From a virus (Duplodnaviria > Caudoviricetes): a stretch of DNA of 56,714 nucleotides. The position numbers were made by a program, and so were the translations under genes. The stretch is taken from positions 1 to 56,714 of the IMG/VR virus record IMGVR_UViG_3300045741_000168, one strand, 5' to 3'. Numbering within the stretch: position 1 is the stretch's first letter; every line of letters begins with the position of its first letter. Positions 5,805-51,001 of the stretch are shown piece after piece. The notes beneath the pieces are model-generated. The model did no database searches and had not been told where the DNA came from. It saw only the letters and a list, made by a program, of their open reading frames with translations.

Positions 5805-6041
5805 TCAGGCGTCTGGGTATTGACCGTAGCAAGCCTTTGCGAGTCCGGCCAAGTCTCGCGTTTTGATGCTTGTCGGCAGGCAGTCTGCGATGCTTGAATT
5901 GACGCGGTAGCCTTGCACTATGGCTACAACACCATTTTCAAACACTGCGACGCAATTGCCGTTGCGCTTGTAAGTACGCGCCTTAGACCGGCCGATGGAA
6001 TCTAGGTCAGAATCGTTGAGCCGCATTGCGCTGGTTATCAT
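5805..6041 (-). CDS. Hypothetical protein
   Basis: AGGAG RBS upstream. Confidence 0.55.
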   Translation of the reverse strand: MITSAMRLNDSDLDSIGRSKARTYKRNGNCVAVFENGVVAIVQGYRVNSSIADCLPTSIKTRDLAGLAKACYGQYPDA

Positions 6042-8400: not shown

Positions 8401-8460
8401 GCCGGGCGGGCGGACCGGGCGCGGGACCGGGCGCGGGACCGGGCGGGCGGGGGCCGGCGC
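8401..8460 (+). repeat. GC-rich tandem repeat with many GGG runs (G-quadruplex potential)
   Basis: gggcgggcggaccgggcgcgggaccgggcgcgggaccgggcgggcggggg. Confidence 0.8.
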
Positions 8461-15485: not shown

Positions 15486-16067
15486 ATGCCAGTAGGAGAT
15501 TGGATAGACAGTATAGGAAGTTCTGTTACTAATTTTTTATCCGGCCCGGCTGATGCTGTGGCTAATGCAGGTGGTCAGTTCGCTGAATCACCTCTTCTTC
15601 CTGCGGCAATCAATGCTGCGGCTACAGGGAATCCGGTTAGTCCTGTCGATGCAGGGACAGATGCAGCAACAACAGCAGGGACAGATGCAGCAACAACAGC
15701 AGGGACAGATGCAGTAACAGCGGCACAAGCTGATGCTGCCGCACAAGAGGCAGGAGCGTCATTGCAGGGAACGGCCTCTTCCGGGGCTTCAGCGTCAACA
15801 TATTTCGGAACTGCTGGGTCTGGCGGCTTATTGGGAAACTTCAAGACAGCGGGGCAACTAATATCTGCGGCGAGTGGGATCAAGTCCCTGCTGACGAGGC
15901 CACCAAGTATGCCGAAACCGACGGTGGCACCAATCGTTCCTATGCCAGACCCACTGGCGCAGCAACGAGCCAAGCAAAAAGCTCTGCTACAGGCGGTTTT
16001 GGGACGAGGACGGGCTGCGTCAATACTGACGGACCCGAATCAGGCAAGCGGAAACTTAGGCGGATAA
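15486..16067 (+). CDS. Pre-portal virion protein with internal repeats
   Basis: PMPDP...GRGRAASILT C-terminus; GTDAATTA repeats. Confidence 0.65.
   Translation: MPVGDWIDSIGSSVTNFLSGPADAVANAGGQFAESPLLPAAINAAATGNPVSPVDAGTDAATTAGTDAATTAGTDAVTAAQADAAAQEAGASLQGTASSGASASTYFGTAGSGGLLGNFKTAGQLISAASGIKSLLTRPPSMPKPTVAPIVPMPDPLAQQRAKQKALLQAVLGRGRAASILTDPNQASGNLGG
15651..15713 (+). repeat. 24-bp in-frame tandem repeat (~2.6 copies)
   Basis: gcagggacagatgcagcaacaaca units. Confidence 0.85.
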
Positions 16068-27730: not shown

Positions 27731-29516
27731 TTTTGCCCCCTATTCCGATGAGGAGGTAAGCAACTATGTCGAGCAAAATAGGGATGCGTGGAATAAGCTT
27801 GGCTATCCAGACAGCTATATAAACAATTACTTCGGTGTTCAGGAGCCGAGTGTATTTGCTGCCAATGGCAAGTTTGCAAGAGTTCTGCATCATGTTGCTA
27901 ATGCTCTTACACCAACCAAAGAGGGAATAGAAAATGCGAAGCAGACAGCATCGAATATCGGAGAGGATGTGATTGGTGGCATAGAAACAGGATTAAACGC
28001 TGTCACGTCACTCACAGCGGCCCCAGCAGCATTGATCGGTTCCGGTCTAGGTGGCTTGGCGTATAAGGCAATGACCGGTGGTGATTACTCGCTGGAGGAA
28101 GTTTCTGACCTTGCCAAGGCATATTCCAAGCTAGTGACTTATGAGCCTCAGACAGAAATGGGGCAAAGAGGCGCTGAGAATTTTCAAGCGCCGTTTAACG
28201 CATTGAGTGAAGTAGCAACCAAGGCTGGACAAAAAAGTACAGACATTGCAACCAAAGCCGGATTAGGAACTGATACAGCATCTGCTGTTGGAGCAACAGT
28301 TGAGTCAACCCTGAACGTTCTTCCGTGGGTCGTGGGAGCCAAGGCTGGCGATATAGGCTTTGCCGCTGCTAAAGCGTTGCGAGGTGAGGCAGTAACTAAG
28401 CTTACTGATCCGGCTCCTACGAACAGAGATATTCATAACGTAGCCACAGTAATTGCTGCTGGTAAGAGGCCTACTGCGCCAGTGACAGAGGACTTCACAG
28501 AGCCAGCAACAAGGCAGCACGAGGAAGGTACTTCGTTAGCATCACCGGTGCCTAGAGTGTTTGGTGCGAAGCCAGCTCCAATACCAGTAGTTGGTGGTGC
28601 TACGGTTAAGGTCGGCGCTCCATCAAATGATGATGTCCTGGCTGTCGAGAAAAGTCTCAAGGCCATTTATTCTGAAACAGGCATAGGACCATTCTCTGTA
28701 GCTGAAGCTGCAAAGGTTGATTCCAATGTCAGAGCAGACTTGCTCGATCCGAATAAAGACATACCGGATGCGTTTCAGCCGCTGATTCCTGAAAAGCCAA
28801 ATGAAGCAGCAGAGCCTCCTATTCCGCAGATTGATTTATCGACTTCGGAGCAGAAGATCGCTGATGAAGTCAGCCAACAAGCCGTTGATGCTGGATACAC
28901 ACCGGAACAGGCGCATCAATACGGCCAACTTTATGCAGCTAGATATGCGGCAAGGGGCGAGAGGCTAGGAATCGATCCGTATGAGGCTTATAAAGGTGGC
29001 CCAGAGCAAACAGTAAAAGAAGTAGTCGAGGAAAATAAGAGTCTTGCTTCCTCTTTTGCAGATAGGCCACAAGAGATGATTAGATCATCAGGGCATGCGT
29101 GGCTGGAAGAACTTGTTGCTGATGCGGCACGAGAAGGTGTCGATCCTCAACTCAAGACTGATCTGCAAACTGTCAGGGACTATCTTGGAAATAAAGGAGA
29201 AGAATTCACCACTGAGCAACACGAGAAGTTTGCAAGGACAGCAGAGGCTTATTTCATGGAAGGTAAAGCCCCGACTTCCAAGCTCCGTGCCGTGTTCGAT
29301 AACTTCAAGGCTTGGCTCACACACATTTATCAGAGCGTTCTTGATCTGAATGTTCCGATCAATAATGAGATTCGTGGCGCGTTCGACAGAATGCTTGGCA
29401 CTGACAAAGAACTTTCTGCACCGGCTGAGATTGGGCCTGAAGCTAAACAGGCGCTAATAGATATGCGTAAGCGTAATTCTGTACTTGAGTCGTTACTGGA
29501 TTGTCTGGCAGCATGA
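27723..29516 (+). CDS. Internal virion protein with polyvalent-protein-like C-terminal domain
   Basis: EQHEKFARTAEAYFMEGKAP...FDNFKAWLTHIY; likely start MNNFAP at 27723. Confidence 0.65.
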   Translation: MNNFAPYSDEEVSNYVEQNRDAWNKLGYPDSYINNYFGVQEPSVFAANGKFARVLHHVANALTPTKEGIENAKQTASNIGEDVIGGIETGLNAVTSLTAAPAALIGSGLGGLAYKAMTGGDYSLEEVSDLAKAYSKLVTYEPQTEMGQRGAENFQAPFNALSEVATKAGQKSTDIATKAGLGTDTASAVGATVESTLNVLPWVVGAKAGDIGFAAAKALRGEAVTKLTDPAPTNRDIHNVATVIAAGKRPTAPVTEDFTEPATRQHEEGTSLASPVPRVFGAKPAPIPVVGGATVKVGAPSNDDVLAVEKSLKAIYSETGIGPFSVAEAAKVDSNVRADLLDPNKDIPDAFQPLIPEKPNEAAEPPIPQIDLSTSEQKIADEVSQQAVDAGYTPEQAHQYGQLYAARYAARGERLGIDPYEAYKGGPEQTVKEVVEENKSLASSFADRPQEMIRSSGHAWLEELVADAAREGVDPQLKTDLQTVRDYLGNKGEEFTTEQHEKFARTAEAYFMEGKAPTSKLRAVFDNFKAWLTHIYQSVLDLNVPINNEIRGAFDRMLGTDKELSAPAEIGPEAKQALIDMRKRNSVLESLLDCLAA

Positions 29517-41607: not shown

Positions 41608-41898
41608 TCATGTCATTTCCCTTCTGAATGCGGCTTCGGAAGCTGCTGCCAATGAGTCGGGTGAAGGCGGCTGCGGAAGCGGATGCCAATGAGTCGGGTG
41701 AAAAGCTATATCAGTTTCCCAATAACCGTCGTGAACTTCTTCTGTTTTGTATACGTCTCCGTCCTCTGCCGGACGCACAAATATAAGCTCTTCTTTCCAG
41801 GTATGGCAATAAAAGCCAACATCCATCTCGCCGTTGTCGTTTACAAGAAGTATTTTGGTGCCGTCTTTAGGCGCTGTTTCTATCGGTAGCCAACTCAT
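41608..41898 (-). CDS. DUF551-like protein
   Basis: WLPIETAPKDGT...PTHWHPLP. Confidence 0.75.
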   Translation of the reverse strand: MSWLPIETAPKDGTKILLVNDNGEMDVGFYCHTWKEELIFVRPAEDGDVYKTEEVHDGYWETDIAFHPTHWHPLPQPPSPDSLAAASEAAFRREMT

Positions 41899-44925: not shown

Positions 44926-45071
44926 ATGATGGCAAAGATCACAGCCTGCCGCGCTCGTCTGTAGTCTGGTGTTCTGACGCTTTCAGGGCGAGTATCCATC
45001 TCTTCACGGACTGCCCGGAGTAACCTTAATATCTTCTCGTCGTGCTGTTCGGATGCAGATTTGTTCACCAT
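44889..45071 (-). CDS. Hypothetical protein
   Basis: Overlaps neighbours in the operon. Confidence 0.45.
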   Translation of the reverse strand: MVNKSASEQHDEKILRLLRAVREEMDTRPESVRTPDYRRARQAVIFAIMWMQSDIRGPGR

Positions 45072-45661
45072 TTCGTTTTCCTCTTCGCCAATCCAATCAA
45101 ACTAAGCCCAGCAGCAATCAGTTGCAGGGTTGGCGGCTCAGGCACTGGCGGCGGTGTGGACACGACAAGCTGATCCAAGGTGTTCTGTGTTCCGACAAAC
45201 AGGCTCAGTCCAGCGCCATAGGCCTCGTACCACGAGCCGCTAAGTTGATACCAATCGAAGGCCTGGGGTATGGGTGACTGCCCAGGCATCGCAAGTCCAG
45301 AATCGGATGCACTGGAAAACACCACGGTGTAGAGGCCAGGAGGCAGCCACAGACTGTCCGCGATGCCGAACCATCCGCGCTGAAACGGCGGGATGTATGT
45401 GCTGGCCTGATAGATCAGAGAACCTGAGCCTGGAAATTCGGTGTAAATCGAGACCGTCAGATCGGCCCAGTTCTCCGAGTCGAAGTAACCATCGATATTG
45501 GTGATTGTTTCGGCCTCACCCATGCCGAACGACACTCCAAGGCTTTGCTGCCAATTCACAGAATAGAGCGCGCCATATGGATTGCTGCCGGTGTTGACCA
45601 GAGTGTTGGCTGATGCGACAGCCGCGATTGAGAGTAAGAGCGTCGCGAGTAATCGTTTCAT
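45065..45661 (-). CDS. Secreted PEP-CTERM-sorted protein
   Basis: Signal peptide MKRLLATLLLSIAAVASA; C-terminal VPEP, hydrophobic helix, KRK. Confidence 0.85.
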   Translation of the reverse strand: MKRLLATLLLSIAAVASANTLVNTGSNPYGALYSVNWQQSLGVSFGMGEAETITNIDGYFDSENWADLTVSIYTEFPGSGSLIYQASTYIPPFQRGWFGIADSLWLPPGLYTVVFSSASDSGLAMPGQSPIPQAFDWYQLSGSWYEAYGAGLSLFVGTQNTLDQLVVSTPPPVPEPPTLQLIAAGLSLIGLAKRKTKW

Positions 45662-45948
45662 ACCAACCACCACACCAGCAGCGCAGTCCATGCCACCGAA
45701 AACAAGATCAGCCATATCCATATCCGGCGTTGTGCCTGAGCGTCGCGCAGAGCTTCCTCCATCAACCATTGGTTTTCTTCATCGTCTGTCATGGTTTCTC
45801 TCCATCTACCAATGACTTCATAGCTTTTTCGTAGAGTGGTTTAGCAGTTGTTATTACCACATGCCCGATGTAGTACATCATCGCGGCACCAGATAACACA
45901 CCGAATAGATAAATTCCAAGCACAACAATTGCGTCAAATAGGTTCATG

Positions 45949-46170
45949 TTACCCCATCTTGTCGATAGTTAGCGCCATCAGCCTTGCGACTTCCTTGTCA
46001 GTGGTTCTCTGTCCGCCAGGCAATACCCAACCTTCATGGAATGGAGTGCCGAACTGATCTGTTCCAGCATCACCCCAGATAATCCTGCCCTTGCCGATGG
46101 TTATATTCAACTCGTGAGTGAACCGGCCAATTTCTTTGTCCTGTATATGTTTCTTTCCTGGAGCGTTCAT
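45949..46170 (-). CDS. Hypothetical protein
   Basis: Overlaps the upstream stop; GWVLPGG. Confidence 0.55.
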   Translation of the reverse strand: MNAPGKKHIQDKEIGRFTHELNITIGKGRIIWGDAGTDQFGTPFHEGWVLPGGQRTTDKEVARLMALTIDKMG

Positions 46171-46670
46171 TTAATATCGATCCTTCTCTCTTGTACCAGG
46201 TGGCAACCGGGAATCTCGACACCATCTTTCAGAAACTTTGCCAGTAATGTTTTGTCTGGCTCTGGTGGCGGTGGCGGTGGATGCCTCATATATTCAGCAG
46301 GAATAAAGTCAACCTCGTCTATTATTACTTTTGGCGGATTGTTTTTGATCGAGATTGCAAAGTAAGGACTATCTACCTTTGATATTCCTGCATACTCCAT
46401 GCAGTCCAGAAGATACTTCTTCAGCCTGGCAGACCTATTCTCAAGGGCCTTCCTGCGACTGTGCATCTGTTCTTCAGCCTGCTTTATAGAAGAAGCCAAG
46501 GCTTCCAGGTTACGACTGAACATCGCAACGTTGGTGGCCTTGGTTTCAAGATCACCGCCGAGCGAATCCAGAGTATCCCTGACAGTTACCTCATCCAAGT
46601 CCAATTCCGATAACTTCTCGATGGACTGACGGTACTCTGTAGCTAATTGATATAACGCTGGTAATGTCAT
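46167..46670 (-). CDS. Siphovirus Gp157-family protein
   Basis: LYQLATEY...ISIKNNPPKVII...PDKTLL...GVEIPGCHL; start MTLPAL at 46670. Confidence 0.85.
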   Translation of the reverse strand: MTLPALYQLATEYRQSIEKLSELDLDEVTVRDTLDSLGGDLETKATNVAMFSRNLEALASSIKQAEEQMHSRRKALENRSARLKKYLLDCMEYAGISKVDSPYFAISIKNNPPKVIIDEVDFIPAEYMRHPPPPPPEPDKTLLAKFLKDGVEIPGCHLVQERRIDIK

Positions 46671-46674
46671 AATA

Positions 46675-46783
46675 AATCCTTGCTTTGCTTCGCAGAACCC
46701 TGCCACGCCGCGCCCCACACCGCCGAGCCCATCCGCGCCAGCACTGCCTGGCATCACCGCGCCCTGCCCGACCGCGCCGCGCC
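46675..46783 (-). ncRNA. Downstream GGY-NN pentamer array (22 units), candidate guide RNA
   Basis: ggcgc ggcgc ggtcg ggcag ggcgc ggtga tgcca ggcag tgct ggcgc ggatg ggctc ggcgg tgtgg ggcgc ggcgt ggcag ggttc tgcga agcaa agcaa ggatt. Confidence 0.75.
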
Positions 46784-46792
46784 GTGATTATA

Positions 46793-47383
46793 TTAAGCAA
46801 CAGCTTTCAATACTTCAACTTCTTCCCACTTGGTAACAACAAACTTCCCATATGGCCCTTTTGTTGCTGGCCTGAAGTCTCCTAGCCCGATACGCTTCCC
46901 AGCATCATCGACAATCATTCTGAAAATCTTTGCTCCGGCAATAGACGTATCAAGATCGACAAGGAATTCCAGCGCCCAGTCATCGAACATAGGCCGATGA
47001 GCCAAGATTCGGCCACCAGTCGATGGGATGCGTACAGCGCGTGTATCGACCTTCCACGGCTGCTTTGTAATCAGTGTGATCTCAGCGCCTTCGATATCGA
47101 CGCAGGCATACAGGTGACTACTCTTGCTGGTGGTTAGTTGAGTCTTGCCAGCTTTGTGAAACCGTCCGCCCTCTACAAGGCACCGCATTAGATTAGGCTG
47201 AGGGATCATAGGTTTACCATCCAACCCGATATATAGCTTGCTCTCTGCAATCTCTAGCGGTGTTCCACGATCCTGTGCGGCTCCCGATCCACGAGTTCCA
47301 TTCGTTGCTGATTCCGCTGCTGCATCGGTAAACTTGTTGCAGATCAGCGGTGTTGTACCTTCGATTCTGATTGATAGTTTCAT
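46793..47383 (-). CDS. RAMP/Cas7-like protein (Vipr-like candidate effector)
   Basis: N-terminal strand IRIEGTTPLI, PMIPQPNLMRCLVEGG, HRPMFDDW, C-terminal Gly-rich loop AGKRIGLGDFRP...GPYGKF; flanked by pentamer arrays. Confidence 0.7.
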   Translation of the reverse strand: MKLSIRIEGTTPLICNKFTDAAAESATNGTRGSGAAQDRGTPLEIAESKLYIGLDGKPMIPQPNLMRCLVEGGRFHKAGKTQLTTSKSSHLYACVDIEGAEITLITKQPWKVDTRAVRIPSTGGRILAHRPMFDDWALEFLVDLDTSIAGAKIFRMIVDDAGKRIGLGDFRPATKGPYGKFVVTKWEEVEVLKAVA

Positions 47384-47399
47384 AATTCCTCTTTAGTTA

Positions 47400-47544
47400 A
47401 AGCCTTGCCTATCCTTGCAGCGCTCGGCATTACCATGCAGGGCCCGGCAATACATTGCGTCGCCTCGCCGACCATTGCCCCACCGAGCAATGCTGTGCAG
47501 CGCCGGGCACTACCACGCCGGGCAAAGCCCGGCATTACCATGCC
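47400..47544 (-). ncRNA. Upstream (G/T)GY-NN pentamer array (29 units), candidate guide RNA
   Basis: 29 consecutive in-phase pentamers, all with G at position 2 and 27 with a pyrimidine at position 3. Confidence 0.8.
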
Positions 47545-47546
47545 AT

Positions 47547-47996
47547 CTAATTAAAAGGTATATCGTCATCCATATCGCCGAATGGCGGAGGATCGTTCTC
47601 GGTGTATGCCCTCTTGGGAGCTGACTTTGCAGCAACCCGATCAGACACTCGTGCAGGAGACCTCGGGGGAGACGCAACCCTGTTGGCCTTGATCCGCAAA
47701 CCGCCAGTAACTTTGCCACCGTACGAGATAGATGGGTCTGTGTAGAGCACAACTTCCTGGCCCTTCCAGTCGTCAGTCTCATCAGAGTTCAGGGCGTTGG
47801 CGATCAAATTCATGTTGGTCGGGTTGAGCACCATGCCCTTGTCGAATTCCTTGAAGTAAATCACGTACTTCATTTCCTCAGAATCGCCATCACGTGCAAC
47901 GTTTTCCACTTTGACGCCACGAATAGTGACAATGTAATCTTCTTCCACATCAGCCTGTTTCAGGTATTTGCTCGGCATCATTTTGCTTATCTTCAT
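47547..47996 (-). CDS. Single-stranded DNA-binding protein-like
   Basis: SKYLKQAD, LNPTN, acidic tail DDDIPF. Confidence 0.7.
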   Translation of the reverse strand: MKISKMMPSKYLKQADVEEDYIVTIRGVKVENVARDGDSEEMKYVIYFKEFDKGMVLNPTNMNLIANALNSDETDDWKGQEVVLYTDPSISYGGKVTGGLRIKANRVASPPRSPARVSDRVAAKSAPKRAYTENDPPPFGDMDDDIPFN

Positions 47997-48100
47997 GTTC
48001 CAGTTCCTGTTTGAGTAAAGTGCAGGGTTTTGAATAGACCCTGCGAACTATAGTGGCGGCCAACCAAGGAGTCCAACGTCACATAACCAGCCGCCAATCC

Positions 48101-49764: not shown

Positions 49765-50333
49765 AGTACATGATTACACCATTGTCAGCCGTGGTGCATG
49801 GCGTAGATGAGTCTGCGATCTTTGGTGAGTATCGTACCATCGTTAGCATCGAAGATGATGGTGACGGTATTTACATACAACTGGATCAGGATAAGGAGAA
49901 TCGGCCAGGAAGAATTAAGCTCAACGGACTCGAAGAACTACACAAAGTAGTCGAAGCAGCGACCAAGCTGATGAAGGCTCACGAGAAGCCCGCTGAGATC
50001 GTAGAGACCGATGACTACAAGTGCCCGAACTGTCCTGCTGAGAAGCTGGTGGAGTTGTACCATAAACAATTGCCTGAACTGCCTAGAATTGTAGATATGT
50101 CATCGACCAGACTGAAACATTTGGCCGCACGATGGAGACAAGTTGTTGCTGAAGAAAAGATGACGCGCCAGGAAGGTTTGAATTGGTGGGTAAAGTTCTT
50201 TGGCATGGTCAAAGAGTCCCCGTTCTTGATGGGCACCAACAATCAGAACTGGCGCGCCAGCCTGGACTGGCTCATCGTACAGGACAACTTTCTCAAGGTG
50301 ATCGAAAGGAAATATCACCGTGAAGTTTCGTGA
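49761..50333 (+). CDS. Protein with phage replication-initiator C-terminal-like domain
   Basis: CPAEKLVELYHKQLPELP...ESPFLMG...WRASLDWLI...NFLKVIERKY. Confidence 0.6.
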   Translation: MKYMITPLSAVVHGVDESAIFGEYRTIVSIEDDGDGIYIQLDQDKENRPGRIKLNGLEELHKVVEAATKLMKAHEKPAEIVETDDYKCPNCPAEKLVELYHKQLPELPRIVDMSSTRLKHLAARWRQVVAEEKMTRQEGLNWWVKFFGMVKESPFLMGTNNQNWRASLDWLIVQDNFLKVIERKYHREVS

Positions 50334-51001
50334 TGGCTGAGAAAGTAACAATCGGGAACGCGGAACTGTGGCACGGGGACTGCCGCGATGTACTGCCACT
50401 ACTGCCGAAGCATGACCTGCTACTGACTGACCCGCCGTATGGCATTGGCACTGGAGCTGCATCAGTTGGCAGGGGTGCGAAGCTGTGGGGCGCACAGGAT
50501 TGGGATTTGGTGATTGCCAATGACGCTGTGCAGCTATCGCTTTCAAAGGCTGGGACGGCGATTGTTTGGGGTGGCAATTACTACCCGCTTCCGCCTTCTC
50601 GGTGTTGGCTTCTCTGGGACAAAAAGCAATCGGATGCTTGGTATTCAACGGCTCACTTCGAGATGGCTTGGACGAACATGAACAAGAACTCCCACGCATT
50701 CCGAATGTCGCGAGTAGAGGCGCACACAGGGATGAACAAGGAGCACCCTTCGCAGAAGCCTTTACGACTGATGTCGTGGTGCATCGACCAAGCGGGCCGT
50801 CCTGGCGTTGTGCTTGACCCTTTTATGGGCAGCGGCACAACCGGCGTTGCCTGCGCCCAGCTTGGCAAAGCCTTCACAGGCATCGAACGCGAGCGCAAGT
50901 ATTTCGACATTGCCTGCGAGCGCATCAGCCGCAGCCAGGCACAGGGCAAGTTAATACCACATGAATCAGCGATAAATCAGATACAGGAACCATTGTTATG
51001 A
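50330..51001 (+). CDS. N6-adenine/N4-cytosine DNA methyltransferase (beta class)
   Basis: TDPPYG, HPSQKP, VLDPFMGSGTT. Confidence 0.9.
   Translation: MMAEKVTIGNAELWHGDCRDVLPLLPKHDLLLTDPPYGIGTGAASVGRGAKLWGAQDWDLVIANDAVQLSLSKAGTAIVWGGNYYPLPPSRCWLLWDKKQSDAWYSTAHFEMAWTNMNKNSHAFRMSRVEAHTGMNKEHPSQKPLRLMSWCIDQAGRPGVVLDPFMGSGTTGVACAQLGKAFTGIERERKYFDIACERISRSQAQGKLIPHESAINQIQEPLL

Follow-up and report, generated by a model that had tools for sequence, protein, structure and literature searches.

A phased pentamer array beside a Cas7-like RAMP gene of a Caudoviricetes virus is very probably the vrRNA array of a phage-borne VIPR system

The window analysed here was the whole 56,714-base virus record, and the locus of interest consists of a 196-aa gene (46793..47383, minus strand) flanked on both sides by intergenic arrays of 5-nt units. 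The first of these (array 1, 47400..47544, minus strand) begins 3 nt past the stop codon of the upstream 149-aa gene (47547..47996, minus strand) and finishes 16 nt before the ATG of the 196-aa gene; as had been stated in an initial annotation of this DNA, it fills nearly the whole gap. The second (array 2, 46675..46783) is located on the same strand, at the opposite side of the 196-aa gene, and comprises nine units, a 1-nt phase slip (...TGCT[G]GCGC...) and a further 13 units ending AGCAA AGCAA GGATT. The last unit of array 2 runs into the ribosome-binding region of the gene that follows (46167..46670, minus strand), which encodes a 167-aa Gp157 or Gam-like protein (PF05565, E = 6e-47; phrog_253). 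Within positions 46675-46690 the AGCAA GGATT end of array 2 contributes AAGGA, which resembles a Shine-Dalgarno sequence and is spaced 5-9 nt from the ATG of the Gp157 gene, and several arrays in relatives likewise end in GGAGA or GGAAG right before the next gene.

Direct parsing of the minus strand from 47544 to 47400 gave the same 29 pentamers that the initial annotation had written out, all in phase and of the form (G/T)G(C/T)NN. On recounting, position 2 was G in 29/29 units, position 3 was C or T in 27/29 (C 22, T 5, G 1, A 1) and position 1 was mostly G or T (G 15, T 11, A 2, C 1). The string of variable dinucleotides (NN) was identical to the earlier listing when rechecked by program, and the reported recurrence of units 1-3 as units 22-24 proved to be a common 13-nt string with two copies in the window and none in the other loci fetched. 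The array ends in ...TGCAA GGATA GGCAA GGCTT and is unique to this locus.

A scan of the window for phased runs of any base at periods of 3 to 7 yielded no run of more than 16 units besides array 1, and the only other period-5 runs, of 13 and 9 units, were both array 2 (46675-46783). When a generic 8-unit pattern was searched for with up to two mismatches, 20 matches were obtained, every one of them on the minus strand within one of the two intergenic gaps; over the 56.7-kb record there were 0 matches on the plus strand and 0 with a reversed control pattern. Scans for tRNA genes and Rfam families returned neither. Three tandem repeats elsewhere in the window were unrelated to the arrays: a 24-nt unit at 15651-15719 (2.9 copies, 97% matches), a G-rich 12-nt unit at 8402-8457 (approximately four copies) and a 37-nt unit at 41625-41702 (2.1 copies). 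The first two of these account for the period-6 and period-4 runs in the window.

The 196-aa protein matched no Pfam or NCBIfam family and belongs to phrog_4652, which has no known function; at least 1597 family members were found at E ≤ 0.001, and every name given by their sources was 'hypothetical'. An AlphaFold (AF2) model was obtained with a pLDDT of 80 and a pTM of 0.77. When it was used in Foldseek there were 113 PDB matches at E ≤ 0.001 (best E = 1.3e-6), led by Csm3/Cas7 chains (9no4_G, 6ifn_F and 8yhe_E at the top); the matched proteins were Csm3/Cas7 backbone subunits of CRISPR effectors (types III and VII). The model also matched a BFVD entry named 'Cas system-associated RAMP superfamily protein'. 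In addition, the protein is homologous to the Vipr protein of phage SUSP1 (record phiSUSP1, KT454805.2), whose gene at 28474-29061 was located with the protein from the window. BLASTP gave 23% identity over 190 aa (E = 1e-11), hhalign of a 24-sequence alignment against SUSP1 Vipr gave a probability of 97.4%, and the profile of that alignment matched PDB 36pp_D, 'SUSP1 Vipr protein', with E = 8.9e-12. The earlier description of this gene as RAMP-like was thus borne out by both the modelled fold and the homology, and we refer to it as vipr.

Contact residues were mapped through the BLASTP alignment, and the published residue numbers fit the phiSUSP1 record. Four of the five SUSP1 residues that contact the fixed GGY triplet (H17, R138, D177, W178 and R179) were either kept or conservatively replaced, R138 aligning with R130, D177 with D169, W178 with F170 and R179 with R171; R130, D169 and R171 were invariant across the 24 sequences, and the scan pattern had an aromatic residue, F or Y, at position 170. 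H17 was changed to N16, but N16 is itself invariant and polar. The Y3-pocket residues E71 and M72 differ, being aligned with P63 and N64, and SUSP1 K82, G87 and K88 correspond to R74, G79 and K80 of the window protein. Three of the homologs collected from other loci (L025, L036 and L037) carried an in-frame stop or were split into two tblastn pieces; these may be broken copies or assembly errors.

Relatives of the vipr gene were gathered from viral (276) and metagenome (433) sources. All 37 close viral relatives (59-88% identity) had a sense-strand array of at least 40 nt within approximately 100 nt of the gene, and none of the 37 had a homolog of the other neighbours of the window gene at E ≤ 1e-5. 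Over the 211,324 bases of these 37 loci, phased runs of at least eight units contained 3460 G units at period 5, compared to 662, 239, 559 and 123 at periods 3, 4, 6 and 7, respectively, in runs of the same length. The unit in the viral relatives was GGCNN, with G2 invariant, C3 present in about 75-95% and positions 4 and 5 variable. Even where the proteins were 79-88% identical, the arrays could be aligned only at their 3' ends; NN was hypervariable while GGY was kept. Of 58 genome loci from many phyla (28-76% identity), 55 also contained G or C runs with a period of 5 and eight or more units, a count that admits any distance from the gene and a size class in which runs of 8-9 units occur at other periods too. 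Applied to SUSP1, the array detector recovered one upstream and three downstream GGTNN arrays. At one distant locus (L102:2999-3520) the units were GGANN (e.g. CGGAG TGGAA) in place of GGCNN, and the arrays adjoined a partial, distant Vipr-like match (32% identity, residues 113-183); judging from this locus, proteins that differ seem to go with a different third base in the fixed triplet.

VIPR has already been described in preprints from 2026, and the present locus is very probably a further example. In two of these (bioRxiv 10.64898/2026.04.26.720920; 10.64898/2026.04.26.720927), VIPR is presented as a CRISPR-like phage weapon in which Vipr, a RAMP protein, binds a vrRNA composed of 9-16 GGY/NN repeats and a constant tail, with one protomer per repeat. 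The GGY triplets are sequestered and the NN dinucleotides pair with DNA, one base being skipped per repeat. Natural targets are given as competing phages, satellites and prophages; many sites fall within genes, the skipped bases then coinciding with wobble positions. The papers also define seven VIPR types and state that a vap gene 'typically' accompanies vipr. Two later preprints also deal with VIPR (bioRxiv 10.64898/2026.10.15.759431; 10.64898/2026.10.21.760802).

Flanking the window's vipr gene, tandem YNNGG (equivalent to GGYNN) repeats, scored as four or more units, numbered 29 on one side and 9 + 13 on the other. Because the arrays lie beside a Vipr homolog, and because sense-strand arrays were present in 37/37 relatives, the locus is therefore very probably a VIPR system composed of Vipr and its arrays, in which 47400..47544 is a vrRNA array. 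By analogy with SUSP1, the array would be transcribed on the minus strand, and protomers of Vipr, encoded just downstream, would load onto the transcript one per 5-nt unit to form a filament. The G-loop and thumb of each protomer would then sequester GGY and leave NN exposed; the NN string would pair with double-stranded DNA bearing the same dinucleotides spaced by one skipped base, and such pairing would repress genes of competing phages. The initial annotation had proposed a GGY scaffold and an NN string that guides a RAMP-like protein, and this idea matches the published VIPR mechanism, with support from the homology, the conservation of gene plus array and the one-skip matches made by guides of the same clade (see below).

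The closest comparison is with the type II VIPR system of SUSP1 (PDB 36pp). Each locus encodes one small RAMP protein, of 195 aa in SUSP1 and 196 aa in the window, and the G-loop and thumb residues of the two are homologous; both are phage-borne, and both carry sense-strand GGY/NN pentamer arrays in the intergenic DNA on either side of the gene, with hypervariable NN, one skipped base in targeting (here seen in clade guides) and no self-targets. They differ in that protein identity is low, units are GGC or TGC here and GGT there, the window has no vap1 homolog and its cassette sits within a replication and recombination gene block. Moreover, the arrays here are uninterrupted (29 units, and 73 and 122 in relatives), whereas SUSP1 has separate vrRNAs of approximately 100 nt, and the 3' element of the present clade is in pentamer phase (GGCAA GGCAA GG), whereas a pseudoknot tail is described for the SUSP1 clade. 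The points counted against a VIPR assignment were the 29 contiguous units of array 1 as opposed to the published 9-16 per vrRNA, the T at position 1 in 11/29 units, the negative searches for targets of the window's own guides and for vap1, the want of a universal neighbour, the 23% identity, the changes at H17, E71 and M72, and the variant tails.

The backbone proteins of class 1 CRISPR effectors (Cas7/Csm3 of types III, VII and I) share the fold, as judged from the model, and likewise grip RNA through a thumb and a loop rich in glycine, with each repeat of the RNA lattice occupied by one protomer. Unlike the Cas7/Csm3 crRNA filament, which has a 6-nt period with one base flipped, the lattice here has a 5-nt period with three bases sequestered, and the guide is gapped. 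No repeat-spacer array or Rfam CRISPR repeat was found in the window, and no cas family, including Cas5, Cas6, Cas10 and Cas11, was found among the seven neighbouring proteins scanned.

The one-base-skip code was examined with all phased guides from the fetched loci, each guide being represented by its best 10-unit window at skips of 0-3 bases; arrays in the database were masked, and guides with shuffled unit order served as the control. In a first set (188 guides, 561 windows, 94 loci), 18 windows scored at least 18/20 at a skip of one compared to one shuffled window, and skips of 0, 2 and 3 gave 0, 3 and 2 windows. In the enlarged set (398 guides, 243 loci, 1.98 Mb), 21 guides scored at least 19/20 at a skip of one compared to two shuffled guides, with 1, 0 and 2 guides at skips of 0, 2 and 3. 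Examples included two guides directed at the same locus, L073: 14 of the first 15 units of the L084 guide and 11 of the first 12 units of the L101 guide matched perfectly. Clade targets included the vipr genes of relatives and an exonuclease gene.

The gapped search of the NN string with shuffled controls, which the initial annotation had suggested, was productive for guides of the clade, where it was specific for one skipped base, but not for the array's own string, which gave no target. Against the window itself, the best skip-1 scores of its own guides were 15/20 and 17/24, no better than shuffled, and no self-target reached an NN match of 80%. Against the 94 and then the 243 local loci, no score exceeded that of shuffled guides. 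In IMG/VR, five exact NNx seeds covering 43 units of the two arrays gave 0, 1, 1, 0 and 18 matches, none of which extended; because the seeds had to match exactly over 8-9 units, a target whose mismatches are scattered would escape them. The single seed matches, to L104 and L105, comprised only the nine seeded units, and the 18 matches of the 8-unit seed reached at most 12/20 on extension; all were treated as chance.

A reverse scan of the window with 442 guides (4503 nine-unit windows) yielded scores at or above 17/18 at skip 1 only, in five overlapping windows at one site, compared to none at skip 1 and a single score of 17 at skip 0 for shuffled guides. The guide belonged to a relative (L225) whose Vipr is 71% identical to that of the window. 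Units 13-24 of its 28 units matched 47946..47982 (minus strand) with 11/12 units perfect, each skipped base falling at a wobble position, and its last four units were unmatched. This predicted target site of the L225 vrRNA spans codons M6-V17 of the 149-aa gene; by our own estimate about 0.004 matches of this type would be expected by chance in the reverse scan. An 18/20 match of another guide (L026) to the window's vipr gene was at chance level (approximately one expected by our own estimate), and no claim is made for it.

These matches bear on the reading that survives best beside VIPR, namely that the RAMP protein binds the array, yet the array is no guide and acts as an operator or decoy lattice that regulates flanking translation or soaks up Vipr. 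TRAP, which binds spaced (G/U)AG triplets, offers a parallel: there, too, triplets spaced at 5 nt are read by an oligomeric protein that passes over the 2 nt in between. TRAP, however, forms a ring and controls attenuation, and the spacers in its sites hold no information, whereas here the spacers are the information. The abutment of the arrays on the ribosome-binding regions of vipr and the Gp157 gene would suit such a role, as would the absence of targets for the window's own NN strings in the searches made, and vrRNAs that redirect VIPR to decoy sites are reported in one preprint (bioRxiv 10.64898/2026.10.15.759431). However, guides of the same clade match gapped DNA far above shuffled guides and specifically at one skipped base, and a pure operator would have no use for the hypervariability that NN shows between close relatives. 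We consider the operator or decoy explanation improbable.

Less probable still is a structured RNA or REP-like palindrome that stabilises or terminates an mRNA, with the 5-nt period merely a by-product of hairpin formation. Units of GGCA can pair with units of TGCC, and the predicted fold of array 1 (-74.6 kcal/mol) was more stable than that of dinucleotide shuffles (z = -2.29). However, across six arrays the folds were no better than those of whole-pentamer or phase-column shuffles (z from -0.4 to +0.9), and what look like hairpins in these predictions are GC steps that pair because they are in phase. The lack of an Rfam family and of a terminator-like site, the absence of the pattern elsewhere in the genome and the lack of conservation of array sequence among relatives also argue against such an RNA. 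Translation of array 1 as a low-complexity peptide, which the initial annotation had named beforehand as the refuting alternative, is hardly credible: one frame is open through the array (a 53-aa ORF, 47380-47541, whose TGA overlaps the vipr ATG), but open frames are expected because stops are rare by composition, a 5-nt period cannot arise from codon-level selection, 1-nt phase slips occur inside arrays, and 7 of 37 arrays of at least 100 nt had stops in all three frames (six of them at least 296 nt long), so that frame analysis of the arrays gave the peptide no support. Three early ideas, namely a TRAP-like operator, a new single-strand annealing protein (suggested by the SSB and Gp157 context) and REP-like hairpins, had also been dropped on the basis of the fold, the neighbour survey, the shuffle tests and the literature.

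With the arrays read as vrRNA arrays, their length raises the matter of how many guides each encodes. In 21 strong matches the target-matched block was 9-14 units long (median 10), and in most cases it was followed by 2-6 unmatched terminal units. In arrays of 31-46 units only one block matched a given target, and long in-phase arrays therefore hold several guides. The motif GGCAAGGCAAGG was present in 112 of 433 distinct arrays of the clade, about 15 nt from the 3' end, and the window arrays end in variants of it only. Judging from this tail motif and the matched blocks of relatives, array 1 probably encodes about two guides of approximately 10 units each plus a 3' tail. Array 2 would encode two guides separated by its 1-nt slip, a slip that fits the legend to 'staggered' arrays, whose vrRNAs overlap by 1 nt, in one preprint (bioRxiv 10.64898/2026.04.26.720920). 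Processing would then yield about four guides in all. A look-up of public RNA runs listed none that holds this RNA.

Other layouts were seen among relatives. One locus (L027:340-2160) carried approximately 15 tandem modules of 115-125 nt upstream of vipr, each a phased array ending GGCAA GGCAA GG, after which come six or seven consecutive T residues and then a spacer that is conserved (GAGGGG...AATATAC); these modules resemble separately transcribed vrRNA genes and have 1-nt phase slips inside them. The longest uninterrupted phased runs, of 122 units (L235, near position 5967) and 73 units (L015:2027-2392), were far above the 9-16 units published per vrRNA. It is conceivable, though on balance doubtful, that such uninterrupted arrays, including the 29 units of the window, encode several guides of approximately 10 units that follow one another directly, lacking any intervening tail, spacer or ribozyme, that filament assembly or cleavage at the 1-nt slips, and not a structured handle, determines where each guide ends, and that, since the ribosome-binding site of the following gene lies partly within the phased GGCAAGG tail, Vipr loading also tunes expression of the flanking genes.

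The upstream gene had been labelled ssb in the initial annotation, and this label held only in part. The 149-aa protein has an SSB-like layout, in which the N-domain is conserved and is followed by a linker rich in Pro and the tip DMDDDIPF, but it has no Pfam or NCBIfam assignment and its PHROG is of unknown function; in a fold search of the protein, OB-fold matches were weak and none reached E ≤ 0.001. The gene is probably co-transcribed with array 1. A promoter-like site at 48047-48075 was not above chance (four such sites found compared to 3.1 expected).

The gene neighbourhood of vipr varied between loci. Homologs of the window's neighbours were rare in the enlarged set, the 149-aa gene being present in only two loci and Gp157 in only one. 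Neighbours in other loci included Erf together with YqaJ, Pol A, helicases, a PD-(D/E)XK nuclease and a terminase. The commonest neighbour, recorded in 22 of 72 loci, was a DUF669 SSB together with an exonuclease and a protein resembling Sak4; the DUF669 SSB is absent from the window. No vap1 homolog was found by tblastn at E ≤ 1, and no neighbour was universal among the loci.

Since VIPR is only months old and known only from preprints, independent checks are of value. The present analysis indicates that a divergent Vipr clade keeps both the GGY lattice and the one-base-skip code, on loci outside those papers, and documents multi-guide arrays with no obvious separators. It also offers a concrete, predicted inter-phage pair, the L225 guide and the 149-aa gene of the window phage, and for annotation it allows two 'empty' intergenic gaps and phrog_4652 to be named.

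Some minor observations were made along the way. Two vipr loci with arrays (L008 and L009) lie near opposite ends of the same 52-kb contig (IMGVR_UViG_3300021475_000019) and could represent two copies or terminal redundancy. In the window, a 234-aa protein encoded at 45065-45769 (minus strand) carries a C-terminal PEP-CTERM sorting motif (PF07589, E = 1.3e-4; narrowly above the curated threshold), which hints at a host with an exosortase system. Finally, the translation of a 223-aa ORF at 50330-51001 (plus strand) contains LLLTDPPYG, which we take to be the catalytic motif of N6-adenine/N4-cytosine DNA methyltransferases.
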